A stretch of DNA of 64,000 nucleotides from a bacterium (lineage in GTDB: Bacteria > Patescibacteriota > Minisyncoccia > Phycocordibacterales > UBA1006): assembly GCA_037144045.1 (NCBI GenBank), contig JBAWXN010000001.1:1387-65386 (forward strand). Direction: 5' to 3'. The notes below the pieces were generated by a model. That model did no database searches. It had not been told where the DNA came from and saw only the letters and a program-made list of their open reading frames with translations. The translations under genes and the position numbers were made by a program. Position 1 is the stretch's first letter. Every line of letters begins with the position of its first letter. Positions 30,379 to 50,816 of the stretch are shown in pieces.

Positions 30379-31527
30379 TTGAAAATGATAAATTATGATA
30401 TAATTGCGTATATGTCATTTTTCCAAGACCTTATTCAAAAGAGTCAAAATTTTATAAAGCTCGCGAAACCAGTAAATAGTATTGTAGGAATTGATGTGGG
30501 AACATCGGCTATTAAGGTAGTTCAGGTAAAGCGTGAAGGGGGTAAAATCCAGCTTGAAACGTATGGTGAACTAGGATTGGGTACTTATGCTAATGAGAAA
30601 CTCGGTAAGGTAGTAACCCTAGGTCCTGATGTTATTGCAACAGCAATTAAAGACATTTTGCGAGAAGCAAATGTGACAACTACTACGGCGGTATTATCCA
30701 TTCAATCGCAGGCAACATTGATTTTCTTGGTTGAACTCCCACAGGTGAAAGAATCAGAGCTTGCAGAAATTATTCCGAACGAAGCGCGAAAGTATATTCC
30801 GGTACCTTTGACCGAAGTATCCCTTGATTGGTATGTGGTGCCCCAGAAACAAACCTACAGCGAAGAACAAGCAGCTCCTGCAGCACAACCAAAAATGGAA
30901 ATCGTAGTGGTTGCGGTGCGTAACGAAACCTTGTCACAGTATCGTGATATTACTCAAAAAGCGGGTATTGAAACTCGAGGAAACGAAATTGAAATATTTA
31001 GTGCTATTCGTTCGGTATTTCATCGTGAAATTGCCCCAGTATTAGTAGTCGATTACGGTGCAGGAACCACGAAGGTGTCAGTGGTAGAATATGGAGTAGT
31101 CCGCGCCTATCACGTGATCAATCGCGGATCGGCATTCATTACTGAGTCGGTTGCACGTACGATGAATATTGATTTTGATAAAGCTGAGGAACTCAAAAGA
31201 ACTATCGGAATGAATATGGTTGCTGGACAGGAAAAAGTAGCAGAATCAATTGCCGCAAATACTCAGTATGTAATTAACGAGATTCAAACTATTCTGCTGC
31301 AATACGAACGACAATCACATAAAGCAATTACTAAAATTATCTTGTGTGGTGGGGGATCAAGTATGCCAGGATTTATAGAAAAAATGGTTGCTTCATTTGG
31401 GGTTGAAACTATTTTCGGAGATCCTTTTGATAAAGCAGAAGCTCCAGAATTTATGAAACCAGTACTCGTAAAGGCAGGTCCTGAATTTACCGTTGCGATG
31501 GGCTTGGCGCTTAAAGAATTTATATAG
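30379..31527 (+). CDS. pilM: type IV pilus assembly protein PilM (actin-like ATPase fold); exact start uncertain (alternative ATG 30412)
   Basis: IVGIDVGTSAIKVVQVK...ETYGELGLG, size and position before the pilN/pilO-like genes. Confidence 0.75.
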   Translation: MKMINYDIIAYMSFFQDLIQKSQNFIKLAKPVNSIVGIDVGTSAIKVVQVKREGGKIQLETYGELGLGTYANEKLGKVVTLGPDVIATAIKDILREANVTTTTAVLSIQSQATLIFLVELPQVKESELAEIIPNEARKYIPVPLTEVSLDWYVVPQKQTYSEEQAAPAAQPKMEIVVVAVRNETLSQYRDITQKAGIETRGNEIEIFSAIRSVFHREIAPVLVVDYGAGTTKVSVVEYGVVRAYHVINRGSAFITESVARTMNIDFDKAEELKRTIGMNMVAGQEKVAESIAANTQYVINEIQTILLQYERQSHKAITKIILCGGGSSMPGFIEKMVASFGVETIFGDPFDKAEAPEFMKPVLVKAGPEFTVAMGLALKEFI

Positions 31528-31565
31528 TATACTAAATGCGATACGTGATATAGTAAAGAGAACAT

Positions 31566-32180
31566 ATGGAGAATCAATTTACAACAACTTTCATTCCCAA
31601 AAAACCAATGGTTCAAGAAACCGCTTCATCAAGTGCGCCGGTATCACGACCTGTTGGTATTTTGTCGTCTCTTTCTTTAGTGATTTTTTTCATCACGATT
31701 GCACTAGGAGGTGGTGTCTATTTTTGGGAACAATATGAAACAAGTAATGTAGCATTGCTTGCCGACTCTGTTAAAAAAGTAGAAAAAGAATTTGAACCAC
31801 AACTAATTACTCAACTCCAGTCACTTGATAAGCAGTTACGTAATGCGAATATTTTGGTTAAAAACCATACAGTCGCAAGTCCACTTTTTGACCTTCTTGA
31901 ATCAACAACTCTGAAACAAGTTCAATTCGGAAAATTTGATTATTCAGTAGATGAAAAATCAGGAGTACAGGTGCGTATGTCAGGAATTGCCGATGGGTAC
32001 CAATCAATTGCCCAGCAGGCTGACGTCCTTGGGGCAAGTACCTTCCTGAAAAATGTTATTTTCTCGAACTTCTTCTTGAATCAACAAGGAAAAGTATCTT
32101 TTGATTTATCGTTTGGGATAACTCCCGATTTCCTTAACTTCCAGACAGCACCATTAGCAAGTAGAGCCGTTACTAATTAA
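31566..32180 (+). CDS. pilN: PilN-like type IV pilus inner-membrane assembly protein
   Basis: single N-terminal TM helix, about 200 aa, directly after pilM. Confidence 0.5.
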   Translation: MENQFTTTFIPKKPMVQETASSSAPVSRPVGILSSLSLVIFFITIALGGGVYFWEQYETSNVALLADSVKKVEKEFEPQLITQLQSLDKQLRNANILVKNHTVASPLFDLLESTTLKQVQFGKFDYSVDEKSGVQVRMSGIADGYQSIAQQADVLGASTFLKNVIFSNFFLNQQGKVSFDLSFGITPDFLNFQTAPLASRAVTN

Positions 32181-32198
32181 TTATTTGAGCACACTATT

Positions 32199-32750
32199 AT
32201 GAGACTCATCCTTTCCATTTTAATGCTTCTAGCGTCAATTGCGGGATTCGCAGTCTTTATCGTGCCTCATTATAATACAATCTCGACATTGCGAGCTCAG
32301 GAAGCAGATTATCAGACCGTCCTTACTAATGCTCGTAAACTGAAAGAACAACGAAACGCTCTGGTTAAAAAATATAATTCATTCGATCAAAATAAATTAG
32401 GTCAGTTGGCAACCATGTTACCGACGAATCCTGAAAACATGAAGTTAATATTGTCACTGCAGTCAGTGGCGTCACAATACGGTATGGTACTGCAGAACGT
32501 GAAAATTGAAGATCCTACTACTGATCCCGCAGCTCAAAATAAGCCAGGATCCCAAGGAAATAGTGAATTAGGAATGCTTACGATTAATTTCTCGGTTGCA
32601 GGTTCGTATGCTTCATTTACTAACTTTATTCGCACCATAGAAAAAAGTCTTCGAGTAATTGAAATTCAAAAGGTGTCATTCTCTGCATCGGATCCAAAAT
32701 CGCAAAATTATCAGTATTCAGTAGCCGTGAAGACGTATTGGCTCAAATAA
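32199..32750 (+). CDS. pilO: PilO-like type IV pilus inner-membrane assembly protein
   Basis: N-terminal TM helix, coiled coil, C-terminal ...VIEIQKVSFSAS...YSVAVKTYWL pattern typical of PilO. Confidence 0.5.
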   Translation: MRLILSILMLLASIAGFAVFIVPHYNTISTLRAQEADYQTVLTNARKLKEQRNALVKKYNSFDQNKLGQLATMLPTNPENMKLILSLQSVASQYGMVLQNVKIEDPTTDPAAQNKPGSQGNSELGMLTINFSVAGSYASFTNFIRTIEKSLRVIEIQKVSFSASDPKSQNYQYSVAVKTYWLK

Positions 32751-34354: not shown

Positions 34355-36097
34355 GTGCATATGCAATTTCTAGAACAATTGGTAAAAATGGGAACCATTA
34401 ATCGCTACCAAATGGAAGACATTTTGGAAAAGGCGAAATCAATGAACGGGGACTTGGATAAGGCAATTGAAGCCGAAGGAATTCCGAGTGATGTGGTTCG
34501 CCAAGCTAAAGGTGAATTTTACGGTGTCGCAGAACGAGTAATTAATTTTCAAGACGTGTCGTTAGATGCCTTGAAATATATTCCTGAAGACGCATCGGCT
34601 AACTACCGCATTGTTCCTATTGGAATAAAAAATGGAGTCCTTGAAATTGGAATGCTTGATCCAGGTGATGTTGCTGCAGTAGGGGCGCTCCAGTTTATTT
34701 CCTCAAAAATTAAAATGCCGATCGAGAAATTCGTAATATCCTATGATGACTACAAGAAAGCAGTTGAAGGATATCATGGGGTGAGTGATTTCGTAGAAGA
34801 AGACTCAGGTAACAGAAGTGCAATGGCTGATGAAATCCTTGACGTGCCTAACGATGAAATAGACGAAAACGCAGGAGTAAACAAAGACGGTTCAATCACA
34901 GAAGACGCCCCAGCAACTAAAATGATTGGGGTAATTGTTAAAAATGCTATCGATGGGGGAGCTTCAGATATTCATATCGAACATATTGGAACCGAAGTAC
35001 GGGTTCGGTATCGTGTAGATGGAATTTTGCATACGTCACTGCGTCCTAATAAGTCATTTCACGGAGCATTAGTTGCTAAGATTAAGACCCTTACTGGAAC
35101 GATGAAACTCGATGAAAAACGTAAACCACAAGACGGTCGATTCGTAGCAGTGGTAGACAAGGGAACAGGACGAGAACGTAAGGTAGATTTTCGTGTATCT
35201 ACAATGCCAACATTCTACGGCGAAAAGGTGGTGATTCGTATTTTGGATCCAGAACGAGGAGTAAAAACACTTGAAGACGTAGGACTATCACCAGAGCACC
35301 TTGCCTTAGTACGAGACGTTATTAAACGTCCGCACGGACTCATCCTCATGACAGGACCTACTGGGGAAGGTAAATCAACGACGTTGTACGCAATGATTAA
35401 AGAAATCGATCGTGAAGGACTCAATGTGGTATCACTCGAAGACCCGATCGAATATAACATTCCAGGAATGAGTCAATCACAAGTGAAGCCTGAAATTGGA
35501 TATGATTTCGCTACAGGACTTCGTAGTATTTTGCGACAGGACCCTGATGTAATTATGGTAGGGGAAATTCGTGATAAGGAAACGGCAAAGCTCGCTATTC
35601 AAGCCGCACTTACGGGTCACTTGGTATTTGCCACACTCCACACCAATAGTGCGATTGGGGCAGTGCCTCGTTTGATTGATATGGGAGTGGATCCTTACTT
35701 GATTGCGCCGACATTGCTTATGTCTATGGCACAGCGATTGGTTCAGAAGCTCATTCCAAATACTGGAAAAGCAGTACCAGTAGATGGTTCAATTGCTGAA
35801 ATGATTGGAAAAGAATTCGGTGATTTGCCGCAACAATTCCTTGAACAGCTTCCGATTACTAATACCGTGTATGAAGCACAGCGTTCGGAAGGTTCTGAAT
35901 CAGGTATGCATGGACGTATGCCTGTTGCAGAAATGTTTGTTGTTGATAAAGACATTCAAAATATTATTTTGACCAACCCAGTAGAAAACGCTATTTACGA
36001 ATATGCGCGTAATAAAGGATTCTTGACCATGAAAGACGATGCCGTACTTAAATGTATGGCAGGTAAAATCCCTTGGGATGAAGTAAACACTTTGTAG
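34355..36097 (+). CDS. pilB: type IV pilus assembly ATPase PilB (GspE family)
   Basis: GspE N-domain, GASDIHIE, Walker A GPTGEGKST, Walker B/Asp box, His box. Confidence 0.9.
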   Translation: MHMQFLEQLVKMGTINRYQMEDILEKAKSMNGDLDKAIEAEGIPSDVVRQAKGEFYGVAERVINFQDVSLDALKYIPEDASANYRIVPIGIKNGVLEIGMLDPGDVAAVGALQFISSKIKMPIEKFVISYDDYKKAVEGYHGVSDFVEEDSGNRSAMADEILDVPNDEIDENAGVNKDGSITEDAPATKMIGVIVKNAIDGGASDIHIEHIGTEVRVRYRVDGILHTSLRPNKSFHGALVAKIKTLTGTMKLDEKRKPQDGRFVAVVDKGTGRERKVDFRVSTMPTFYGEKVVIRILDPERGVKTLEDVGLSPEHLALVRDVIKRPHGLILMTGPTGEGKSTTLYAMIKEIDREGLNVVSLEDPIEYNIPGMSQSQVKPEIGYDFATGLRSILRQDPDVIMVGEIRDKETAKLAIQAALTGHLVFATLHTNSAIGAVPRLIDMGVDPYLIAPTLLMSMAQRLVQKLIPNTGKAVPVDGSIAEMIGKEFGDLPQQFLEQLPITNTVYEAQRSEGSESGMHGRMPVAEMFVVDKDIQNIILTNPVENAIYEYARNKGFLTMKDDAVLKCMAGKIPWDEVNTL

Positions 36098-36146
36098 GTG
36101 TTTTTTCATTTACTTCGTAAGGTTGCTCGTGATAGAATACGGTTAT

Positions 36147-37214
36147 ATGCAATCAAGTTTCCAACAACAAGTAGATGCTTTGCTCGATATCGTATTTCAA
36201 AATGGTGCTTCAGACCTTCATTTATCAGTGGGGCGTCACCCGTTTATTCGTGTAAATGGAGCATTGAACGAAGTTACTAATTTCCCAGAACTAACACCGG
36301 ATGACATGGTGGGAATCGTAACCCTTGTTGCAGGTGAAGAAAAATCTGCAAAACTCGCAAACCTTGAAGAAATAGATTTTGCCTACAACTATGCTGATAA
36401 ATTACGCCTCCGAGGAAATGCCTACATTCAATCAGGGAAAGTAACCCTTGCACTCCGCACTATTGAAAAAATTCGAACCCTTGCTGACTTGAAATTGCCT
36501 CAAATATTGCTTCAATTTACCCGTTCTAAACAAGGATTTTTCCTCGTAGTAGGTCCTGTAGGGCAAGGAAAGTCGACGACACTTGCAGCAATGATTGATT
36601 CTATTAACACGGAACGTCGTGAACATATTCTTACTATTGAACACCCTATCGAATATTTACACACAGAAAAACAGTCAATTATCGATCAACGTGAAGTAGG
36701 GCTTGATACTGAATCGTTTCATACAGCACTTGAATCTGCATTCCGAGAAGACGCAAACGTAATTCTGGTAGGTGAAATGCAAAACCCAGAAACGATTGCA
36801 ACTGCCGTAACCGCTGCTGAAACAGGTCACTTGGTATATTCAACACTTCACACTAATAGTGCGGCGCAAACCATTGACCGTATTATCGATTCATTCCCAC
36901 CAGCCCAGCAAGAACAAGTTCGCGTGCAGCTCGCGGCAACACTCCTTGGGGTATTTTCACAACGACTCATCCCAAGTTTGAAAGGAGGTCGTGTAGCAGC
37001 GTACGAATTACTTATTAACACCAAAGGGGTAGCAACCATGATTCGTGAAGGACGCACTCATGAAATTGATACTGCTATCGAAACAGGAAGTGAACACGGC
37101 ATGATTTCCATGAATCGTTCATTAATTGACTTAGTACAGCGGGGTGAAATATCAGTCGATGATGCCCGTATGTTTACGACCAATCCTGATGGATTGACGA
37201 GTATGATGCAATAA
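36147..37214 (+). CDS. pilT: twitching-motility / pilus retraction ATPase PilT
   Basis: GASDLHLSVGRHPFIRVNG, GPVGQGKSTT Walker A, about 355 aa; start at ATG 36147. Confidence 0.88.
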   Translation: MQSSFQQQVDALLDIVFQNGASDLHLSVGRHPFIRVNGALNEVTNFPELTPDDMVGIVTLVAGEEKSAKLANLEEIDFAYNYADKLRLRGNAYIQSGKVTLALRTIEKIRTLADLKLPQILLQFTRSKQGFFLVVGPVGQGKSTTLAAMIDSINTERREHILTIEHPIEYLHTEKQSIIDQREVGLDTESFHTALESAFREDANVILVGEMQNPETIATAVTAAETGHLVYSTLHTNSAAQTIDRIIDSFPPAQQEQVRVQLAATLLGVFSQRLIPSLKGGRVAAYELLINTKGVATMIREGRTHEIDTAIETGSEHGMISMNRSLIDLVQRGEISVDDARMFTTNPDGLTSMMQ

Positions 37215-37228
37215 CCTACAACTAATCT

Positions 37229-38434
37229 ATGAATTTTAATTATAAAGTAATCGACCCAACCGGAAAGGAGGTAGCTGGGCAAATAGATGCGGTAACCAAC
37301 GACGCAGCGGTATCATCACTGCAGCGGCGTGGCTTTATTGTGGTTTCGGTAGTTGCCGACAGTCAAAAAAATATCCTTCAAAAAAGTTTTTCATTTTTTG
37401 ATAAGGTGCCCATGAAAGACGTAGTGATTATGTCACGCCAGCTTTCGGCATTGTTTGATGCTCAGGTATCAGCGCTCAAAGCATTTACCCTGATGTCAGA
37501 ACAGTCTGATAATGGGATGCTTAAATTTGCACTGCAGACCATCAGTCAAGACATTCAAGGAGGTATTTCCATTTCTGGTGCTATGGAAAAACATCCCAAC
37601 GTATTTTCAAACTTTTATGTAGCCATGGTGCGCGCAGGGGAAGAATCTGGGAAACTCACCGAGACGTTCAAGTATCTTGCGGATTATTTGGAACGACAAT
37701 ATGAATTGGTTGCTAAAACTAAAAATGCCTTGGTATATCCGGCATTCGTAGTAGTAACCTTTATTGCAGTAATTGTTTTGATGCTTACGATTGTAATTCC
37801 ACAGTTATCATCAGTACTCCTTGAAACTGGGCAACAACTTCCAATTTATACACGAATCGTAATTGCATTGTCTGACGTGTTCGTACATTACTGGCCGATT
37901 ATGCTTGTGGTAGTTATTGGGTTAGTTGCATACTTCTCATACCTAGCAAGTCGTGAAAGTGGTAAGCGAACGCTTGATTCATGGAAATTAGCACTTCCTG
38001 CATTCGGAAACTTGTATCAGAAACTCTACCTGTCACGTATTGCAGATAACATGAACACGATGCTTTCTGCAGGTATTCCGGTACTCCATGCGCTTGAAAT
38101 TACGGGTGCGGTAGTAGACAACAAAATCTACGAAGAGGTCCTTAAACAAGCCGTAGACGATGTACGCGGAGGAAACCTTATTTCTGCATCATTTGAAAAG
38201 ACTCAATACATTCCGGCAATTATGGTTCAAATGGTAAAAGTAGGAGAAGAAACCGGATCGCTCGGACAAATCCTTTCAACATTGGCTCGTTTCTATAAAC
38301 GAGAAGTAGACAACGCGGTAGACACGTTAATCGGATTGATCGAACCGGTAATGATTGTGGGACTCGGGGTTGGGGTAGGGTTCTTGCTCACCGCCATCCT
38401 TATTCCTATTTATAACATTGCAGGGTCGCTCTAG
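37229..38434 (+). CDS. pilC: type IV pilus platform protein PilC (GspF family, two T2SSF domains)
   Basis: about 400 aa, 3 TM segments, duplicated GspF domain pattern. Confidence 0.88.
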   Translation: MNFNYKVIDPTGKEVAGQIDAVTNDAAVSSLQRRGFIVVSVVADSQKNILQKSFSFFDKVPMKDVVIMSRQLSALFDAQVSALKAFTLMSEQSDNGMLKFALQTISQDIQGGISISGAMEKHPNVFSNFYVAMVRAGEESGKLTETFKYLADYLERQYELVAKTKNALVYPAFVVVTFIAVIVLMLTIVIPQLSSVLLETGQQLPIYTRIVIALSDVFVHYWPIMLVVVIGLVAYFSYLASRESGKRTLDSWKLALPAFGNLYQKLYLSRIADNMNTMLSAGIPVLHALEITGAVVDNKIYEEVLKQAVDDVRGGNLISASFEKTQYIPAIMVQMVKVGEETGSLGQILSTLARFYKREVDNAVDTLIGLIEPVMIVGLGVGVGFLLTAILIPIYNIAGSL

Positions 38435-38486
38435 GGGTAGTATACTATTATCAGTTATTATTTAATTACAAAACAGGTACGCATTT

Positions 38487-38930
38487 ATGAAAAAAAATAT
38501 CTTACAAAAAGGATTTACATTGATCGAACTCCTCGTGGTAGTAGCTATTATTGCTATCCTCTCAGGAACGATCTTGGTAGCGCTTAACAGTGCTCGTGCA
38601 AAAGCGAAAGACGCGCGTATTCAAGCAGAATTGCAACAATTGAAATCGCAAATGGAATTGTATTACACGAGTAATAATAATGGGTATGGATCAGCAACAG
38701 ACTGTACTTCTGGTACCGGTAATCCATTTACTTCTACAGGTGGGACGAACAACGCAGCTACTTTAATTACAGGTCTCGAAATAGATAATGGGTCTGCTTC
38801 ACTAAGTTGTCAAGCAAGCTCAGCTAGTTGGGCTGTTTCATCTCCGTTATCATCAGCAAGTTCAACTTGGTGCGTAGATTCAAATGGAAAATCAAATACA
38901 GGTACCGCTACTGGAGGTTCATGTATCTAA
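38487..38930 (+). CDS. type IV major pilin paralog 1 (class III signal peptide)
   Basis: MKKNILQKG|FTLIELLVVVAIIAILSG... prepilin leader, cleavage after Gly, Glu+5; C-terminal Cys pair. Confidence 0.85.
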   Translation: MKKNILQKGFTLIELLVVVAIIAILSGTILVALNSARAKAKDARIQAELQQLKSQMELYYTSNNNGYGSATDCTSGTGNPFTSTGGTNNAATLITGLEIDNGSASLSCQASSASWAVSSPLSSASSTWCVDSNGKSNTGTATGGSCI

Positions 38931-38985
38931 ACAACTAACTGCTTCGGCGGTTTTTGTTTTAGATAAAACGGGTTATACTACGGTT

Positions 38986-39471
38986 ATGAAAAAAATCTCG
39001 GCAGGGTTTACCTTAATTGAATTACTGGTAGTGGTTGCAATTATTGCGATATTATCAGGAACAATACTGGTTGCTCTGAACAGTGCTCGTACAAAAGCAA
39101 AAGAAGCACGTATTCAAGCTGAAATGCAGCAATTAAAATCACAAATGGAGCTCTACTACACAACAAATGGTGGTTATGGTTCAACCAGTGGGGATTGTAC
39201 GACAGGTGCTTTTGCAAACGGTACTGATAATCCTTCAACGCTTATTAATGGCCTTACTCTAGATATTTGTGGAGCGCTAGGATACTGCAATAAATTAGCT
39301 TGTTATTCAGGTACTGATTGGTGGGTAACTGCGGTGCAAATGCCTAGTGGTTCAACTACGTGGTGTGCGGATTCTAATGGAGCTTCAAAACCTGGAGTAG
39401 ATTCCAATGGAGCACCAAGCGCATCACCATTGTGGGTAATTTCAAACACTCCTAATAAATACTGCTGGTAG
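38986..39471 (+). CDS. type IV major pilin paralog 2
   Basis: MKKISAG|FTLIELLVVVAIIAILSGTILVALNSARTKAKEARIQ...; start at ATG 38986 (the ORF-track start 38884 overlaps pilin 1). Confidence 0.85.
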   Translation: MKKISAGFTLIELLVVVAIIAILSGTILVALNSARTKAKEARIQAEMQQLKSQMELYYTTNGGYGSTSGDCTTGAFANGTDNPSTLINGLTLDICGALGYCNKLACYSGTDWWVTAVQMPSGSTTWCADSNGASKPGVDSNGAPSASPLWVISNTPNKYCW

Positions 39472-39503
39472 CAGTTTTTTTAGTGACTTGGTATACTACA
39501 TAC

Positions 39504-40004
39504 ATGAAAAAAGCCTCAGGATTTACATTGATCGAGCTCCTCGTGGTAGTAGCTATTATTGCTATTCTCTCAGGAACGATCTTGGTAGCACTGAACAGTG
39601 CTCGTGCAAAAGCGAAAGACGCGCGTATTCAATCCCAGTTACAACAAATAAAAGCTCAAGCAGAACTCTATTATACGAACCATGGCAATGCGTATTCAAC
39701 CTACTGGTCAACCTTCACCGGAAACACGGAATCGTTATGTGGAACAGCTGGATATGGGGTGTTTGATGCAACTGATCCGGATTCATCATTTAGGCTTTTG
39801 AAAGACGCAGTCTATGAATACGATGGGCAATGGAATGGTGGTGCTGGGTGGTGTTTCCTAGGCGCAGGAGGGGAAAGTTGGATGGCGCTTGCCGCATTAC
39901 ATTCAGGGGGATATTGGTGCGTAGATTCCAATGGGTCTTCTAAAAATTTTACAGGAAATCCTTGGTCTATTACCTATACTGGGGGTCAAATAAATTGTCC
40001 TTAA
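39504..40004 (+). CDS. type IV major pilin paralog 3
   Basis: MKKASG|FTLIELLVVVAIIAILSGTILVALNSARAKAKDARIQ...; N-terminal 110 nt are about 96 percent identical to paralog 1. Confidence 0.85.
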   Translation: MKKASGFTLIELLVVVAIIAILSGTILVALNSARAKAKDARIQSQLQQIKAQAELYYTNHGNAYSTYWSTFTGNTESLCGTAGYGVFDATDPDSSFRLLKDAVYEYDGQWNGGAGWCFLGAGGESWMALAALHSGGYWCVDSNGSSKNFTGNPWSITYTGGQINCP

Positions 40005-40010
40005 TACATT

Positions 40011-40562
40011 ATGAAAAAAAATAACTTACAAAAAAATAGTGGATTTACCGTACTAGAACTCCTGGTTATTTTAGGAATTATTACTATTTTAATCGGATTA
40101 GTACTTACTGGTTTAAATGCGGCACGAAAACATTCAAACGATGAACGAAAAGTAGCGACCCTTAAGACGGTAGCCCTTGGACTCCGTGAATACTTTAACA
40201 TTTGTCGTGCCTATCCAGTAACCATGGCAGCTAATGAAGCGTGTCCCGCACTTGCAAACCAGGTACCGGCTCGACAATTGAGCGACGTGATTCCTGGAAT
40301 TGTTGGCCTTGATATAAACGGTGCGACTTCAAAATATCATTATGTAAGTCTAGTTGATACGACCTCAAATGGACAAGGCGCTACCGACTGTACCAATTTC
40401 CATGTATGGGTTGACCTTGATGCGGATGGAGCTTCTCTTGCAGCTCAAAAAAGTAACAAGACATCAGCAGATTACGCAACGCTTGGACTCGTTCAGTGTT
40501 CAGGTAATACCGTGGTACCACTTGCAACTCAAGACAACACGGTGTATGACATCTTAAAGTAA
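40011..40562 (+). CDS. type IV pilin-like protein (divergent fourth pilin)
   Basis: MKKNNLQKNSG|FTVLELLVILGIITILIG... prepilin motif. Confidence 0.8.
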   Translation: MKKNNLQKNSGFTVLELLVILGIITILIGLVLTGLNAARKHSNDERKVATLKTVALGLREYFNICRAYPVTMAANEACPALANQVPARQLSDVIPGIVGLDINGATSKYHYVSLVDTTSNGQGATDCTNFHVWVDLDADGASLAAQKSNKTSADYATLGLVQCSGNTVVPLATQDNTVYDILK

Positions 40563-40570
40563 TTACTATT

Positions 40571-41317
40571 ATGAATATTCTTATTACTATTCTCGCAGGA
40601 ATCCTCGGCCTTATTATTGGTAGTTTTTTAAATGTGGTTATTTTACGAATGAATACAGGGCGAGGACTCGGCGGGCGATCAAAATGTTTTTCATGTAATA
40701 AAACACTTGCGTGGTATGAATTACTACCGGTAGTAAGCTATCTTGTTCAAGGTGGGAAATGTCGAAATTGTAAAACACCTATTTCAAAGCAGTATGCGTT
40801 AGTTGAAGGAGTAACGGCACTGCTATTCGCCGGGGTTGCAGCACAAATGAATGTATTGACACAACCAATAACGGTGTTGTTGTGGTTAGTGCTTGTTTCG
40901 CTAGGAATGATTATTGCGGTTTACGATATTCGTCATTATGTAATTCCTGAAATGCCACTCATTTTATTTTTAGGTACTACGATTGCTATTGGATTTCATG
41001 GGATTGCTTTTCTGCTGGTTCCATTACCATTTTTGTTGTTATGGGTTGTTTCAAGGGGTGCTTGGATTGGTTTTGGAGATATAGAACTTATGGCATGCGC
41101 TGGAATGTTGCTTGGGATTACAGGAGGAATTGCAGCAGTAGTAAGTTCTTTTTGGATTGCGTGTATCGTGATCCTTCCCTGGTATGCACTCCAAAAATTA
41201 CGAAAGAAAAACGTATCGCACAAAGTTCCGTTTGGTCCATTTCTCTTGGCGGGAATGTATTTAGTGGGAATCTTTGGAATAAATGTTTTAACAATGATAA
41301 TGGGTATGGTAAAATAA
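40571..41317 (+). CDS. pilD: prepilin peptidase / N-methyltransferase (A24 family)
   Basis: CFSCNKTLAWYELLPVVSYLVQGGKCRNCKTPIS zinc motif, multi-TM, conserved Asp residues. Confidence 0.88.
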   Translation: MNILITILAGILGLIIGSFLNVVILRMNTGRGLGGRSKCFSCNKTLAWYELLPVVSYLVQGGKCRNCKTPISKQYALVEGVTALLFAGVAAQMNVLTQPITVLLWLVLVSLGMIIAVYDIRHYVIPEMPLILFLGTTIAIGFHGIAFLLVPLPFLLLWVVSRGAWIGFGDIELMACAGMLLGITGGIAAVVSSFWIACIVILPWYALQKLRKKNVSHKVPFGPFLLAGMYLVGIFGINVLTMIMGMVK

Positions 41318-41321
41318 CCTT

Positions 41322-41975
41322 ATGAAACACAAAGGGTTCACACTTATAGAATTCATTGTTATTATCAGTATTTTTGCAGTGATGGCATCAGTTGCATTGT
41401 TTAACTTTAATGGATTTAGAAGTAATGTAGGATTAAACAACCTTGCACACGACATTGGACTTACGATTCGCCAAGCTCAAGTATTTGGGTGGGTAACGCA
41501 GTCAGCGTCGTCATCAGGAGCAATTGCGCTTGATAGTCTAGATCCGATTACGGGAAACCCGGTTCGATTCGCAGACGGAGTATTTTTTGATAGTGCGACA
41601 TTAGGTACAGAATTTATCTTGTATCGAAAAACAAACGAAAATAATCCTAAAAATTACGAAACAGGATTAGATTCACGAATTGATACCATTAAAATTAATG
41701 GTCCGTATATTATTGAGAAAATATTATCGTCTCCCAATAAGGCTGACCTTAAAATTACATCAGCAAACCTGGTTCCAACCACAGGTCTCATTACGACCAT
41801 GTCTGATGTATCTATTGCATTTACTCGTCCAAAACCTGAAGCAGCATTCTTTAGTGGAGTTGCACCTAGTGCTGATACTTATGTTGCTATTTATATTCGT
41901 GGAACAACTGACCCACTAGGAAGCGCGAGTCATGTCGTGATCGTTTCTCGTACGGGTGAAATTGATGTACAATAA
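41322..41975 (+). CDS. minor pilin / pseudopilin (prepilin-type N-terminal cleavage domain)
   Basis: MKHKG|FTLIEFIVIISIFAVMASVA. Confidence 0.75.
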   Translation: MKHKGFTLIEFIVIISIFAVMASVALFNFNGFRSNVGLNNLAHDIGLTIRQAQVFGWVTQSASSSGAIALDSLDPITGNPVRFADGVFFDSATLGTEFILYRKTNENNPKNYETGLDSRIDTIKINGPYIIEKILSSPNKADLKITSANLVPTTGLITTMSDVSIAFTRPKPEAAFFSGVAPSADTYVAIYIRGTTDPLGSASHVVIVSRTGEIDVQ

Positions 41976-41987
41976 TACTATTCTCTT

Positions 41988-42542
41988 ATGTTTTCTCAAT
42001 CTCGATTAACAACAAAACGACACGCAGGATTTACCTTGATGGAGGTGATGGTTTCGGTTTCCATTTTTACTATTGTCGTTGTTGTGGGGATTGGGTCATT
42101 GCTTACTATTAATGAAACATATCGTAAATCACAAACTGACCGTAAAGCAGTAGATAGTCTCACGTACAACCTCGAGGCTATGAGTCGCCGTATTAGAACG
42201 GCTCAGACATGGAGCGGGGTAATCGGAACACCTGCTAATTCATTTTCATTTAAAGATCAAGACGGTGTAGATGTGAGTTATCAATACGATGCACTTATCC
42301 CTGATCATATTGCGGTTACGGAAACACCTCCAGGTGGGACTGCAGCTACGTATGATATTACCCCTGATGGGGTGCATATCGATAGCTCAGTTCCTGGTGG
42401 TGGTATGTGGTTTACTCAATATCAAACAGGAGTAACGGGTCAAAAATATCTCCAAATTAACATTGGAGGACGGGTTGAAAATGGAAAGCAGACATCACAA
42501 TTCATGTTTCAAACGTCAGTATCGAAACGAACTTTTGAATAA
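41988..42542 (+). CDS. minor pilin / pseudopilin
   Basis: ...KRHAG|FTLMEVMVSVSIFTIVVVVG. Confidence 0.75.
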   Translation: MFSQSRLTTKRHAGFTLMEVMVSVSIFTIVVVVGIGSLLTINETYRKSQTDRKAVDSLTYNLEAMSRRIRTAQTWSGVIGTPANSFSFKDQDGVDVSYQYDALIPDHIAVTETPPGGTAATYDITPDGVHIDSSVPGGGMWFTQYQTGVTGQKYLQINIGGRVENGKQTSQFMFQTSVSKRTFE

Positions 42543-42544
42543 TT

Positions 42545-43102
42545 ATGCAACGACTCAATCGACAAAAACATAGTCTTGAATCTTCTCGACATAACGGGTT
42601 TACTTTGATTGAGACCCTTTTTGCAATTCTAATCTTTTCGGCAGCGTTAATTTCTCTTCTTGCAATTTCAAGTAAAGGTATTAGTGCAACGAATGAAGTA
42701 AAAAATGAAACCACGGCATATTATTTAGCTCAAGAAGGCCTTGAGGTGGTGCGTAATATTCGTGATAATAATTTCCTCCTCATTCAAGCAGGAGGATCAG
42801 GTAGTTGGACTGATGGATTTTTGAATAACCCTGACTGTAGTACTACCCCGTGTCATGTGGTGTACTCCCCAGGATCCGTTCCAGTGCTTGCTCAAAATAG
42901 TGGACAACTATCGAATGAAATTTATTTGAATGCTGGCCAATATGCAAATACAGGAACAGACGATACAGGATTTTCTCGGGATATTACGGTTGCGGTAGGT
43001 GCGGGTCTAGATGAATATATTATTACGTCAACGGTAAACTGGCAGGCAAAAACTATTAAGAAAACGGTGACCCTACAAACATTTCTTAAGAAGTGGCAAT
43101 AA
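42545..43102 (+). CDS. minor pilin / pseudopilin (PilV-like)
   Basis: ...SRHNG|FTLIETLFAILIFSAALISL. Confidence 0.75.
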   Translation: MQRLNRQKHSLESSRHNGFTLIETLFAILIFSAALISLLAISSKGISATNEVKNETTAYYLAQEGLEVVRNIRDNNFLLIQAGGSGSWTDGFLNNPDCSTTPCHVVYSPGSVPVLAQNSGQLSNEIYLNAGQYANTGTDDTGFSRDITVAVGAGLDEYIITSTVNWQAKTIKKTVTLQTFLKKWQ

Positions 43103-43110
43103 ATTATCAT

Positions 43111-43644
43111 ATGAAAAAGAACACTCATCACAAGGGATTTGTTATATTGTTTACGATTCTTATTGCAGCCATTATTATGGTGATTGGTCTTGGTATTTAT
43201 TCAATTGCATCACGGGAAACCGTGCTTTCAGGTACGGCTCGCGAAGCTCAATATGCGTTTTATGCTGCTGATGCAGGAGTGGAATGTGCGCTTTATGCAC
43301 AAAATCAAGACAATACTACGGCAAATCCCAAATTGTACGATCCTAACCTTAGTGTTGGGCCTTACTTTAACTGTGGTGCAGCTTTGGTTGCAATTTCTGG
43401 ACAAGGAACTCTTGCGAGTCCTTTTACTATGAACATAGTAGTGGATACTAATCATAAAACGTGTGCCAAAGTAAGTGTTTTTGAATCAGGTTCAACTCGA
43501 CGTATCATTTCTCAAGGATATAACTTGTGTAATATTTCAACAGGGTTACCCCTCCTTTCAAACCCTATTCTTGTAGAACGTGACTTGGATACTCGGTATA
43601 ACATTACGGGCGGAAACCTTTCTGCGACCGGAACTAATCCGTAA
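43111..43644 (+). CDS. minor pilin (PilX-like)
   Basis: MKKNTHHKG|FVILFTILIAAIIMVIGLGIY...EAQYAFYAADAGVE. Confidence 0.65.
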   Translation: MKKNTHHKGFVILFTILIAAIIMVIGLGIYSIASRETVLSGTAREAQYAFYAADAGVECALYAQNQDNTTANPKLYDPNLSVGPYFNCGAALVAISGQGTLASPFTMNIVVDTNHKTCAKVSVFESGSTRRIISQGYNLCNISTGLPLLSNPILVERDLDTRYNITGGNLSATGTNP

Positions 43645-48120: not shown

Positions 48121-48127
48121 TTTCTTG

Positions 48128-48198
48128 TTGCGGGGCCCGGATTCGAACCGGGGTCTTCAGGTTATGAGCCTGACGAGATACCATTACTCTACCCCGCG
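48128..48198 (-). tRNA. tRNA-Met (anticodon CAU); C1xA72 mismatch suggests the initiator type
   Basis: Cloverleaf readable on the minus strand: acceptor CGCGGGG/CCCCGCA with a C1-A72 mismatch, anticodon loop CUCAUAA, T-loop TTCGAAT; CCA not encoded. Confidence 0.75.
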
Positions 48199-48259
48199 AT
48201 GCCTCAAAATAATGAGGCTTTCAGTATACTCTTAATAAATTAAAAATCAAGCAATGGTT

Positions 48260-48481
48260 TTATTGTCCTGTCTGTAATTGCTGTTTTGCTGATATGAGTG
48301 CTTCTAGCATTACACGGAGGGTTTCTGATTCTTCATCGGTGGTAATTTTAGTTTTATTACCAAGATGTTGAATTCTTATTTTAAACATCGCATGGGAATC
48401 CTGAAATAAATGATCAAGGTGTTGTTGACTTGATTTATCACGTATTAAGAAAAAACGGGGAGTTAGGGAATAAGTGTTCAT
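48260..48481 (-). CDS. small hypothetical protein (73 aa)
   Basis: ORF only; ends 6 nt after the radC stop. Confidence 0.3.
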   Translation of the reverse strand: MNTYSLTPRFFLIRDKSSQQHLDHLFQDSHAMFKIRIQHLGNKTKITTDEESETLRVMLEALISAKQQLQTGQ

Positions 48482-48486
48482 GGTGA

Positions 48487-49227
48487 TTATTTATTTTCAA
48501 TAATACTTTTAAATCCTTGTTCTGAAACGATAACATGGTCGATCAAATCGATGCCCAGTAGTTTACTTGCTTGGATGAGTTGTTCGGTAATAGTGAGATC
48601 GTCGTTACTCGGTTCTAAATTCCCTGATGGGTGATTATGAACAAGTATTACGGCTGCAGCCGCATATTCGAGAGCAGGACGGAATACTTCACGAGGGTGA
48701 ATAATATTTGCATCAATAGTTCCAATAGAAATAGTTTCATCATGAATTACCTTGTAGTGGCTATTAAGGTAAATACCGCGAAGGTGTTCTTTAGGGAGGT
48801 CACGCATTCCTTTGGTGTATTCATAGACGTCATGCGCCGTGCGAATAATTTTTGCTCCAGTGGGATTGCGTTCAAAGAGACGTTTACCGAGCTCCACTAC
48901 TGCGATAATCTGAGTTGCTTTCCCGAGAGGGATTGATAATTCCTCAGCAAGTTTTTTAGGATTGGTTTCGCGCGTAATACTTCGTTCCCCGTATTCCTTA
49001 AGGATACGGTTGCTCATGGTAATAATGTCTTCGCGTTTAGTACCCAGGTTTAAAATAATTGCCCAGAGTTCTGCAATATTAAGCACAGTAGGACCTTCGC
49101 GGAGAAGTTTTTCCCGAGGTTTTTGATCTACAGGAATATCGCGAATTGTAAGTCGATACGGTTTTAAAACCGTGTTAGTAATAATAGGAACATAGGTTGA
49201 TCGGGTATAGTTCTTTTCCATGCGCAA
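48487..49227 (-). CDS. radC: RadC-like JAB-domain protein
   Basis: HhH N-terminal part plus JAMM motif HNHPSGNLEPSNDDLTIT. Confidence 0.85.
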   Translation of the reverse strand: MRMEKNYTRSTYVPIITNTVLKPYRLTIRDIPVDQKPREKLLREGPTVLNIAELWAIILNLGTKREDIITMSNRILKEYGERSITRETNPKKLAEELSIPLGKATQIIAVVELGKRLFERNPTGAKIIRTAHDVYEYTKGMRDLPKEHLRGIYLNSHYKVIHDETISIGTIDANIIHPREVFRPALEYAAAAVILVHNHPSGNLEPSNDDLTITEQLIQASKLLGIDLIDHVIVSEQGFKSIIENK

Positions 49228-49305
49228 ACTATATCATTTTTTACTCCAAGAAAAAATACCTTGAGAGCCAAGGTTTATTTTTTCTTTATCTTTAGATAAT
49301 TCGTG

Positions 49306-49379
49306 CGCAGCCGAAGGGACTTGAACCCTCAACCTCTCGCGTGACAGGCGAGTGCTCTAACCAGTTGAGCTACGGCTGC
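49306..49379 (-). tRNA. tRNA-Asp (anticodon GUC)
   Basis: acceptor GCAGCCG/CGGCTGC, anticodon loop CUGUCAC, T-loop TTCAAGT. Confidence 0.85.
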
Positions 49380-49450
49380 AATGCTTGGTATCGTATCACA
49401 AACAAGGATAAAAACCAAGAGGTCCTTCCTCGCTCAGGCTACGAAGGACG

Positions 49451-49527
49451 TGGTGTCAGAGGTGGGAGTTGAACCCACGACCTCGGCGTTATGAATGCCG
49501 CGCTCTTACCAACTGAGCTACTCTGAC
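49451..49527 (-). tRNA. tRNA with CAU anticodon (elongator Met or lysidine-modified Ile2), CCA encoded
   Basis: acceptor GTCAGAG/CTCTGAC, D-loop AGTTGGTAA, anticodon loop UUCAUAA with an A31-C39 mismatch in the stem, T-loop TTCAACT, genomic CCA. Confidence 0.8.
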
Positions 49528-49596
49528 AAGAACTCCAGTATACTTATTTTCTTGAAAATTTCAAGATTTGTGGTACGATGACTTGGCGTTTGAAGT

Positions 49597-49669
49597 GCCG
49601 TTGTAGCTCAGCTGGTAGAGCACGTCATTGGTAATGACGAGGTCTCGGGTTCGATTCCCGACAATGGCT
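49597..49669 (+). tRNA. tRNA-Thr (anticodon GGU)
   Basis: acceptor GCCGTTG/CAATGGC, anticodon loop UUGGUAA, T-loop TTCGATT. Confidence 0.85.
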
Positions 49670-49695
49670 CAATTTTCCTAAAATACAAAGACTTG

Positions 49696-49995
49696 CTAAG
49701 CAGCAAGTCTTTGTTCGTCTTCTTCAGGCACGTATTCAAATCGTGACTCCGTTTTCCCTTTGTGGTAACTAATAGTAAGGACTGCTTTGCGGGCACGAGT
49801 CTCGTTTTCTAGAATGTCAGTTCCCGTAATAACATAAGTACAATTTTCCGGAGTCGCGCAAGTCTTTGAATAGTTGAGTGCGTGAAATTCTCGATGAAGG
49901 TCCTCATGATGAATAAGTTCTCCAAATACTTCTCGAGGCATATTGGTTCGAGTAAGCTTATTTTCGTTATGTGCAAATGGTTCAAATAGTTCCAT
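49696..49995 (-). CDS. hypothetical protein (99 aa)
   Basis: ORF only. Confidence 0.3.
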   Translation of the reverse strand: MELFEPFAHNENKLTRTNMPREVFGELIHHEDLHREFHALNYSKTCATPENCTYVITGTDILENETRARKAVLTISYHKGKTESRFEYVPEEDEQRLAA

Positions 49996-50114
49996 AGAAT
50001 AATAATATCACAGCAGTATAATATATTAAATATTTTATAGAGTTAATGAGGTATTTGACGCTGGATTGCCTTTTGGTAGTGTTTCCTATAGTATGAATTT
50101 AAATCTTAATAAGA

Positions 50115-50660
50115 ATGAAACAAATTACTTTTATTACTGGTAATCCTGGTAAAGCTGAACGTATTCGTAAGCATCTTCCTATAGAATTACTCCATCAAGC
50201 AATAGATTTAAATGAAATCCAATCGCTTAACTTACAAGAAGTAGCTGGACACAAGGCTCAAGAAGCGTACAAATTCGTACAGGGACCAGTTCTTGTTGAA
50301 GACGTTTCCTTAGTGTTTAATGCATTAGGTGCTTTACCGGGACCACTTATTAAATGGTTCCTGAAAGAATTGGATAACCCAGGTTTGTGTAAATTACTAG
50401 ATGGGTATACTGATCGGTCTGCGGTGGCAAAAGTATGTTTCGCATTATTTGACGGGAAGGAAACATATTTTTTTGAAAACGAACGATCAGGTACTATTGT
50501 GCTCGAACCAAGAGGTAAAAAACTATTCGGTTGGGATACTATTTTCGTTCCAGATGGTTATGAAAAAACCTGGGGTGAAATGACAGAAGAAGAAACCGTT
50601 CCCAGTTCGATGCGTCGTCCAGCACTTAAGAAACTTCAAGAATTTCTTACTACAACATAA
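50115..50660 (+). CDS. non-canonical purine NTP pyrophosphatase (Ham1/RdgB/ITPase family)
   Basis: ITFITGNPGKAERI...E..ETY.ENA..KA motif pattern, about 180 aa. Confidence 0.8.
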   Translation: MKQITFITGNPGKAERIRKHLPIELLHQAIDLNEIQSLNLQEVAGHKAQEAYKFVQGPVLVEDVSLVFNALGALPGPLIKWFLKELDNPGLCKLLDGYTDRSAVAKVCFALFDGKETYFFENERSGTIVLEPRGKKLFGWDTIFVPDGYEKTWGEMTEEETVPSSMRRPALKKLQEFLTTT

Positions 50661-50671
50661 TTACAAATAAG

Positions 50672-50697
50672 CCACCCGATGAGGTGGTTTTATATTT
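50672..50697 (+). terminator. intrinsic terminator (ccacc-cgatga-ggtgg + T-run)
   Basis: hairpin plus TTTTATATTT. Confidence 0.5.
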
Positions 50698-50740
50698 ATG
50701 GACAAAAAAGTTAAAGCAGGTATGATAGTCTTGTTTCCAA

Positions 50741-50816
50741 GCCAAAGTAGCTCAGTTGGTAGAGCACGTCTTTCGTAAAGACGGGGTCGCCGGTTCAATC
50801 CCGGCCTTTGGCTCCA
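50741..50816 (+). tRNA. tRNA-Thr (anticodon CGU), CCA encoded
   Basis: acceptor GCCAAAG/CTTTGGC, anticodon loop UUCGUAA, T-loop TTCAATC, CCA. Confidence 0.85.

Follow-up and report, generated by a model that had tools for sequence, protein, structure and literature searches.

In the 64-kb stretch of contig JBAWXN010000001.1 analysed here (hereafter the window), a type IV pilus gene cluster contains three tandem pilin genes, pilin 1, pilin 2 and pilin 3 (p1, p2 and p3), which, judged from their sequences, are complete type IV pilin paralogues. The bacterium is an uncultured, ultra-small member of the Candidate Phyla Radiation (CPR) and resembles Paceibacteria/Nomurabacteria. p1 and p3 share a nearly identical 5′ segment and diverge strongly beyond it, a pattern very probably caused by recurrent short-tract gene conversion of the constant α1 segment among complete pilin paralogues. 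Comparison of the sequences establishes the pattern itself, its breakpoint, a conflict of phylogenies across that breakpoint, conversion after speciation and recurrence across the clade.

Differences in the tract were scored over the 38 codons (114 nt) that begin with Gly(-1), and synonymous divergence (dS) was calculated by the method of Nei and Gojobori (NG86). p1 and p3 differ at 4 of 114 nucleotides (tract positions 18, 48, 72 and 75), every difference being synonymous and none changing an amino acid (dS = 0.146). p2 differs from p1 at 25 of 114 nucleotides (about 21 of them synonymous, with two amino-acid changes; dS = 1.92) and from p3 likewise at 25 of 114 (dS = 1.88), and synonymous sites in both p2 pairs are saturated throughout. 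This alignment, proposed together with dS estimation in a preliminary description made from the sequence of the window, bears out its count of about 4 differences in 108 nucleotides between p1 and p3, and sets 0.146 for that pair against about 1.9 for both p2 pairs. The exact ranges given there (38509-38620 and 39521-39632) lay a few bases out of register and are now 38511-38624 and 39519-39632. Its statement that p2 encodes the same amino acids with about 22 synonymous differences holds for the silent changes, not for the peptide. Similarly, the 45-amino-acid N-terminus that it called almost identical is identical between p1 and p3 over 38 residues, whereas across 53 residues the three proteins vary by 3-9.

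The p1-p3 similarity ends abruptly on both sides. Its 5′ end is the Gly codon, upstream of which lie leaders of 8, 6 and 5 residues that are unlike in sequence. Its 3′ end follows codon 38: over the next 15 codons, 15 of 45 nucleotides differ and the proportion of differing synonymous sites (pS) reaches 0.86, compared with 4 of 114 nucleotides in the adjacent tract (Fisher p = 1.4e-6). The longest identical run extends up to 39 nt between p1 and p3, and at most 12-15 nt between p2 and either of them (12 to p1).

Downstream of the tract the three genes group differently. The p1 and p2 heads share 39% identity over 88 amino acids (pairwise E = 5e-19), and the C-terminal end S.W...WC[VA]DSNG.S...C is common to p1, p2 and p3, so that the C-terminal domains, at first described as unrelated, are diverged homologues. 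By head BLASTP, p1 scores 61 bits with p2 and 27 bits with p3, whose head is the farthest from that of p1, and the head tree is (p1,p2),p3. In line with this tree, p1 is closest to p2 over codons 39-53, whereas over codons 1-38 it is closest to p3. Specifically, informative sites at nt 1-114 comprise 22 for p1=p3, 1 for p1=p2 and 1 for p2=p3, against 5, 10 and 3, respectively, at nt 115-159 (Fisher p = 3.8e-5). A grouping conflict of this kind across nt 114 is, in terms of sequence, the signature of a recombination tract, unlike that of duplication followed by divergence. The preliminary description had also taken p2 for a much older copy; instead, both the heads and codons 39-53 pair p1 most closely with p2, and p2 orthologues are partly converted elsewhere.

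A close counterpart of the locus allows the genes to be followed across species. A p3 search retrieves a protein of 99% identity, encoded on an ENA contig of 102 kb (L161), and another of 68% identity from a short contig (L162; head 159 bits). L161, which represents a sister species, has the gene order of the window and the same three pilins, and its PilB and PilC are 99% identical in protein. dS between L161 and the window ranges per gene from 0.49 to 1.8, mostly 0.5-1.0, with PilB and PilC at 0.57-0.60. Amino-acid identity with L161 is 99% for p3, 94% for p2 and 86% for p1. The Ser/Thr/Gly-rich p1 head is the fastest-evolving of the three (dN, the nonsynonymous counterpart of dS, 0.092 vs L161), and purifying selection on the aromatic-rich p3 head is strong (dN 0.008 at dS 0.49; 99% identical in L161).

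These data bear on the other origin that had been offered for the p1-p3 similarity, a very recent tandem duplication of p1 into p3, after which the head would have diverged fast by positive selection while the helix stayed constant. The low tract divergence is as in a young duplicate, and whole-gene tandem duplicates exist in relatives (L037; L074/L154). However, the synonymous saturation that sets in right after codon 38 is beyond the reach of protein-level positive selection, the p3 head is the one farthest from p1 and is itself under purifying selection, and p3 is an old gene with orthologues in L161 and L162. Because tract and head (with codons 39-53) support conflicting groupings, we therefore exclude a recent p1-to-p3 duplication as highly improbable.

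Conversion between p1 and p3 can further be placed in time. In L161, the p1 and p3 tracts are identical (0 of 114 differences). Three synonymous changes, at tract positions 24, 99 and 102, are present in both L161 p1 and L161 p3 and in neither window copy. Downstream of nt 114, by contrast, the genes group by orthology, window p3 and L161 p3 differing at 1 of 45 nucleotides and p1 and p3 at 15-18 of 45. Derived substitutions found in two paralogues of one genome are, at this comparative level, the observation that defines concerted evolution through gene conversion, and the three post-split changes indicate that conversion took place after the window and L161 lineages had separated as species. 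Taken together, the sharp breakpoint, the conflicting phylogenies and the derived changes in both L161 paralogues uphold an exchange between p1 and p3 by recombination or gene conversion, as first suggested in the preliminary description.

Selection on the sequence itself, without any exchange of DNA, might also keep two tracts alike, through mRNA structure, a translation or targeting signal, or codon optimisation where both genes are highly expressed. The p1 tract does use codons like those of ribosomal-protein genes (codon adaptation index, CAI, 0.70 for p1, 0.61 for p3 and 0.43 for p2), and its synonymous sites are unusually conserved between species. Nevertheless, p1 and p3 have the same codon at 34 of 38 positions where 16 are expected even with ribosomal-protein codon frequencies (P = 4e-10), and of 22 non-optimal p1 codons, 20 are common to p3 and 5 to p2. 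Such selection would also have to account for three new synonymous changes common to L161 p1 and p3, and for p2, whose synonymous sites drift freely although its peptide is nearly the same. The predicted fold of the 5′ ~130 nt is ordinary (z = -1.2 and -0.5), and z-scores of -1.2, -2.05 and -0.47 give no support for RNA structure in the tract. Selection acting alone is therefore a very unlikely explanation.

Several points weigh against short-tract conversion, or at least against conversion as the sole cause. All evidence is comparative, with no conversion event directly observed. Within the window p1 and p3 (4 differences) are no closer than p1 and its L161 orthologue (3 differences), and the post-speciation case, as read from these sequences, depends on the three L161 sites together with mosaics in short Logan contigs. 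The comparison loci are mostly metagenome-assembled genomes or metagenome contigs, which are prone to repeat mis-assembly. Additionally, of about 30 synonymous sites in the p1 tract (38511-38624 vs L161 5003-5116), 3 differ, against an expectation of about 12 from the background (P <= 0.0013); the p2 tract shows 11 synonymous differences from L161, as expected. This conservation of the p1 tract between species suggests that some selection on the nucleotide sequence also acts, which could inflate the p1-p3 similarity somewhat. Because unbiased conversion should not slow substitution, the slowdown needs another cause, possibly selection on the codons of p1 as a highly expressed gene, a bias in conversion, or inter-lineage exchange.

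Beyond L161, PilC-anchored scans of genome and metagenome contigs returned 160 related loci, none above 84% PilC identity; the informative sister loci came from the p3 and p2 protein searches only, the p2 search adding two more short contigs, L164 and L165. p2 orthologues occur in L161, L165, L164, L003 and L007, those in L003 and L007 having a C-terminal extension in common. Compared with the p1 type, the L165 p2 tract differs at 18 of 72 nucleotides and then at 1 of 48 (positions 73-120; p = 6e-4), and its product carries the p1-type residues Ala30 and Asp34. Both the p1 and the p2 tract of L164 are mosaics of p1 and p2 types. These mosaic tracts indicate, on sequence grounds, that p2 is not permanently excluded from exchange.

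The composition of the array differs among close relatives. The window and L161 carry p1-p2-p3; L164 (1-1752) has p1 and p2 and immediately after them the fourth pilin, without p3; L162 (1-2515) has one unassignable pilin and then the p3 orthologue; and L165 (1-962) has p2 and then the start of p3. The first L162 pilin was considered as a deletion hybrid of p1 leader and p2 head, which would point directly to crossing-over in the tract, and this reading was rejected: its leader is p1-like, and the head evidence (31% vs 23% identity, best match L007_1) is too weak. Across the clade, pilin copy number is mostly 1-3, with one locus carrying 6, and heads turn over quickly outside the genus. A further contig, L163 (1-811; ENA ERZ19026211 scaffold_170477), holds a stretch encoding the final ~55 residues of a p3 head, without a difference from the L161 type; an unrelated reading frame lies 5′ of it and a ribosomal-protein-L18-like gene 3′. 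The contig is probably a chimeric assembly and not a silent cassette.

The homogenised tract itself recurs. The helix variant is specific to the genome and common to its paralogues, being SGTIL in the window and L161, STAVL in L162, SATIL in L003 and LLAATILASLGG in L007, and in L007 two tracts are 11/114 apart with heads matching at only 40 bits. Among 114 non-redundant related loci, 42 have at least two tandem pilins of this type. With a tract defined as at most 5% mismatch from the Gly codon or just before it, followed by at least 30% divergence, near-identical tracts are present in 16 of the 42 (length 63-116 nt, median 83), and whole-gene pilin duplicates in 2. Pilin pairs with identical first 25 residues differ by a median of 4.5 of 75 nucleotides when they come from the same locus (n = 26), versus 17 of 75 when they come from different loci (n = 869; p = 3e-10). 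The third-position GC content (GC3) of converted tracts is 0.48 vs 0.40 for others, a difference in the direction of GC-biased conversion that is not significant (p = 0.08). As a separate observation, L037 (2917/3513) and L074 (= L154; 11394/12100) carry identical whole-gene tandem pilin duplicates, with 0 mismatches over 431-511 nt and identity running 55-80 nt further upstream, which reflects either very recent duplication or an assembly repeat.

Repeats also raise the prospect that a collapsed or mis-joined repeat in the assembly placed one N-terminal segment on two genes. The source is probably a metagenome assembly, and the 0-mismatch tracts of several relatives are shorter than typical k-mers or reads. 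On the other hand, the two window copies have 4 differing sites, different leaders and different flanks, the same architecture was independently assembled in L161, which is another species from another sample, the p2-p3 junction appears again in L165, and orthologues of single array genes are found in L162 and L164. An assembly artefact is accordingly extremely improbable as the source of the pattern.

Each gene of the array is accompanied by its own putative expression signals. A TATACT box precedes every array pilin, three in the window, three in L161 and two in L162; these boxes were recognised by cross-species alignment only, since a sigma-70 consensus scan of the + strand returned nothing, missing them for want of a -35 match. 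The TATACT box exactly 6 nt before the ATG of p2 and of p3 suggests, from spacing, that their transcripts are leaderless. Terminator-like hairpins after p1 and at the end of p2 are conserved in L161 with compensatory change. By these features, each of p1-p3 looks independently expressible. Additionally, all three pilins have a class III signal peptide (MKK..G|FTLIE) with Gly(-1), Phe(+1) and Glu(+5), all score above the TIGR02532 cutoff, and each continues into a hydrophobic α1N followed by an amphipathic α1C (together ~50 residues; FTLIELLVVVAIIAILSGTILVAL...ELYYT). The starts used here are ATG 38986 for p2, in place of a longer open reading frame from 38884, and ATG 39504 for p3; these shorter starts yield the typical MKK leader, and the longer mechanical reading frames are not the genes.

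This arrangement is relevant to the view, raised in the preliminary description, that the array resembles cassettes with swappable heads for antigenic variation. A programmed system of the Neisseria type, whose cassettes pass variable head sequence on to an expression site, would fit tandem pilins with a constant 5′ part and variable 3′ parts, and array content that varies between close relatives. Furthermore, the only canonical G-quadruplex (G4) motif on either strand of the window (GGGACTCGGGGTTGGGGTAGGG, 38359-38380, + strand) lies inside the pilC 3′ end, 128 nt upstream of the p1 ATG. However, tblastn with the heads and blastn with the tract reveal no silent, truncated or promoterless pilin copies in the window, only the three complete genes, and no inverted tract copies; the check for promoterless silent cassettes that had been suggested is thus negative within these 64 kb. 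No copy lacks a start codon, a leader or the conserved -10-like box, and p1 and p2 have terminators as well. Moreover, the exchanged segment is the constant one, and the heads are stable orthologues across species, that of p3 with a dN of 0.008. The G4 motif is built of the GGG glycine codons of the conserved PilC motif VGLGVGVGF, GGG making up 39% of Gly codons at this spot vs ~12% elsewhere. It is found at 4 of 21 orthologous sites, being kept in L161, L006 and L085, and is cut to three G-runs or lost in most other relatives, some of them with conversion tracts. The G4 upstream of p1 is therefore an unlikely Neisseria-like initiator, as it is not conserved where tracts occur, and head variation of the Neisseria type has a very low probability here.

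We propose that the segment from Gly(-1) to residue 37 is kept homogeneous by recurrent, non-reciprocal interlocus conversion between the tandem copies. The latest event in this genome would have joined p1 and p3, bypassing p2, probably because the identical runs of p2 (at most 15 nt) are too short to start recombination, the presumed mechanism being of the RecA type and requiring a run of identity. The 5′ boundary of the tract would be fixed by the length indel in the leader, and the 3′ boundary by loss of homology, probably also by selection, as the second half of α1 packs against its own head; the boundaries reflect homology loss, selection for helix-head co-adaptation, or both. p1 may be the usual donor, because its tract has the most expression-adapted codons and corresponds to the reconstructed ancestral sequence, p3 having four private changes. 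The pay-off may be that an identical α1N keeps all three pilins compatible with one PilD/PilC/PilB machine and one filament core, p1-p3 serving as alternative or co-polymerising subunits with different surfaces. A bolder extension, which we regard as possible and rather unlikely, is that the homogenised α1 segment is a standing recombination handle for gaining, losing and reshuffling whole heads, either through unequal crossing-over in the array or through homologous capture of foreign pilin genes via the same pili. It is prompted by the variable array content, the copy number of 1-3 (6 in one locus) and the fast head turnover outside the genus; if true, it would allow these epibiont-like bacteria to retune pilus adhesion and hence host range.

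Interlocus gene conversion, with the concerted evolution that it produces, is a known process in bacterial paralogues, surveyed in PMC6053082. Like known cases, the p1-p3 tract has homogenised synonymous sites, is short and sharp-ended with bounds set by homology loss, makes paralogues within a genome closer than orthologues, and can be escaped by a copy once long identical runs are lost. Unlike them, it covers ~114 nt of a ~450-nt gene, so that each gene is chimeric, one part evolving in concert and the other diverging freely, and the pattern recurs in many genomes of one CPR class. In the pilE/pilS system of Neisseria, silent partial donor copies supply the variable region to one expression locus (PMC3899283). 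Type IV pilins with a constant N-terminus and variable heads, and non-reciprocal transfer of the RecA type (presumed here), are common to both systems; in the present array, by contrast, every copy is complete and has a promoter-like box of its own, transfer concerns the constant region and the heads remain in place.

Closer functional parallels come from organisms with several major pilins. Streptococcus sanguinis has two, PilE1 and PilE2, with an identical N-terminal α1 portion, heads ~78% identical and stochastic co-polymerisation (PMC6497953, PMC10628169). The identical α1N in major pilins is matched here, the window heads being only ~30-45% identical, and by this analogy the S. sanguinis heteropolymer is a plausible functional model for the array. 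The PilE1 and PilE2 genes are adjacent, as are the window genes. Haloferax volcanii PilA1-6 have a fully conserved H-domain and different heads, and each forms pili with distinct roles (PMC6491452). An identical hydrophobic N-terminal domain combined with different heads thus occurs in both, though the latter is an archaeal system. The PilA1-6 genes are not known to form one tandem array, and nucleotide-level conversion was not found described for Haloferax pilins in the literature checked. Among Patescibacteria, type IV pili are described for Nanosynbacter lyticus TM7x (PMC11623550) and pilin-rich clusters for the Paceibacteria UBA5633 (PMC9763046). These are likewise CPR loci with several pilins, tied to host attachment and with major pilins rich in Gly, Ala, Ser and Thr (GAST), but one major pilin per system is described, or pilin genes are merely listed. 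Text searches of the two papers found nothing on pilin genes being arrayed in tandem, duplicated or recombined, and full-text literature searches found no description of partial gene conversion for CPR pilins.

The type IV pilus cluster spans 30.4-43.6 kb of the window, all on the + strand (Table 1). Its cognate machinery comprises PilM/N/O, PilB, PilT, PilC, PilD, three minor pilins and a PilX_N-like protein, and the p1-p3 array is placed between pilC and the conserved fourth pilin with pilD. The fourth pilin-like gene is a single copy after the variable array, is kept in the relatives inspected and, starting 6 nt after p3, is probably co-transcribed with it. A profile of p3 homologues aligns, among PDB sequences, to Geobacter PilA-N (9e-18), Thermus PilA4, Neisseria PilE (positions 10-143, ~134 positions) and S. 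sanguinis PilE1, and the Cys pair of the C-terminal WCxDSNG...C is invariant across a 68-sequence alignment. The GAST fraction, a criterion for major pilins cited in PMC11623550, is 0.39-0.49 for p1-p3 (p1 0.49) vs 0.25-0.27 for PilB and PilC, and this composition fits abundant external subunits. The best PilC matches in public genomes and metagenomes have 83-84% identity and Paceibacteria/Nomurabacteria-type names; an exact-protein look-up returned no record for p1 or p3.

Table 1. Coordinates of the pilus cluster, the pilin array and its putative signals in the window
Feature	Position	Strand	Evidence or remark
pilM, pilN, pilO homologues	30379..32750	+	Pfam PilM_2 7e-34, PilN 5e-5, PilO 1.5e-9; upstream end of cluster
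pilB, assembly ATPase	34355-36097	+	Pfam T2SSE 3e-111
pilT, retraction ATPase	36123-37214	+	Pfam T2SSE 1e-36
pilC, platform protein	37229-38434	+	Pfam T2SSF 5e-58
TATACT -10-like box of p1	38441..38446	+	intergenic alignment, kept in L161 and L162; putative function
p1, 147 aa	38487-38930	+	N_methyl 2.7e-8; leader MKKNILQK then G|FTLIE
Conversion tract, p1 copy	38511-38624	+	Gly(-1) and mature residues 1-37 (α1N, start of α1C)
Terminator-like hairpin and T-run after p1	38937..38962	+	compensatory change in L161
TATACT box of p2	38974..38979	+	6 nt before p2 ATG, leaderless-type spacing
p2, 161 aa	38986-39471	+	N_methyl 9e-8; leader MKKISA then G|FTLIE
Corresponding segment, p2 copy	39004-39117	+	25/114 nt and 2 residues off; no recent conversion in this genome
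Terminator-like hairpin and T-run overlapping p2 stop codon	39461..39482	+	
TATACT box of p3	39492..39497	+	6 nt before p3 ATG
p3, 166 aa	39504-40004	+	N_methyl 9e-9; leader MKKAS then G|FTLIE
Conversion tract, p3 copy	39519-39632	+	4/114 nt from p1 tract; L161 comparison
Fourth pilin-like gene, GFTVLE type	40011-40562	+	begins 6 nt past p3
Prepilin peptidase PilD	40571-41317	+	Pfam A24_N_bact 9e-29
Three minor pilins	41322-41975, 41988-42542, 42545-43102	+	
PilX_N-like protein, last cluster gene	43093-43644	+	weak match 1.2e-4, under Pfam cutoff

Other genes of the locus show features of their own. Against L161, two genes diverge far more than any others of the locus, the fourth pilin (dS 1.77, dN 0.15, 78% amino-acid identity) and the first minor pilin (dS 1.2, dN 0.24, 70% amino-acid identity), whereas PilB and PilC are 99% identical. 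In the fourth pilin, however, only one substitution falls within the ~60 residues that begin at the mature N-terminus. The fast-evolving surface parts at the locus are those of the fourth pilin, the first minor pilin and the p1 head, not p3. The N-terminus of the PilX_N-like protein (KGFVILFTILIAAII) is hydrophobic and lacks Glu5. Downstream of the pilus locus, a five-tRNA cluster (Met, Asp, Met, Thr-GGT, Thr-CGT) occupies 48127-50816 on both strands, preceded by ligA, a gatC homologue (by L161 synteny) and an amidase-family (GatA-like) gene.

That paralogues undergo partial conversion is well known, and recombination is classically associated with pilins, so the array is a new example in a new group and no new molecular mechanism. 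What is unusual is that the homogenised part is the constant segment of complete, separately promoted tandem pilins, and that this recurs across a class. It provides a clean natural case of sub-genic concerted evolution with a datable post-speciation event, a copy that in the window has escaped (p2) and some 16 lineages as replicates. Patescibacteria have few conserved surface structures, type IV pili being one of them, and cultivated members use these pili to attach to the host cell. Within this Paceibacteria lineage, two or three complete major-type pilins have their core segment kept interchangeable while the exposed heads evolve separately, and one nearly frozen head beside a fast one points to a mixed or alternating pilus surface made by a single machine. 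p1, p2 and p3 also offer a concrete handle on how host recognition is encoded in uncultured CPR bacteria.

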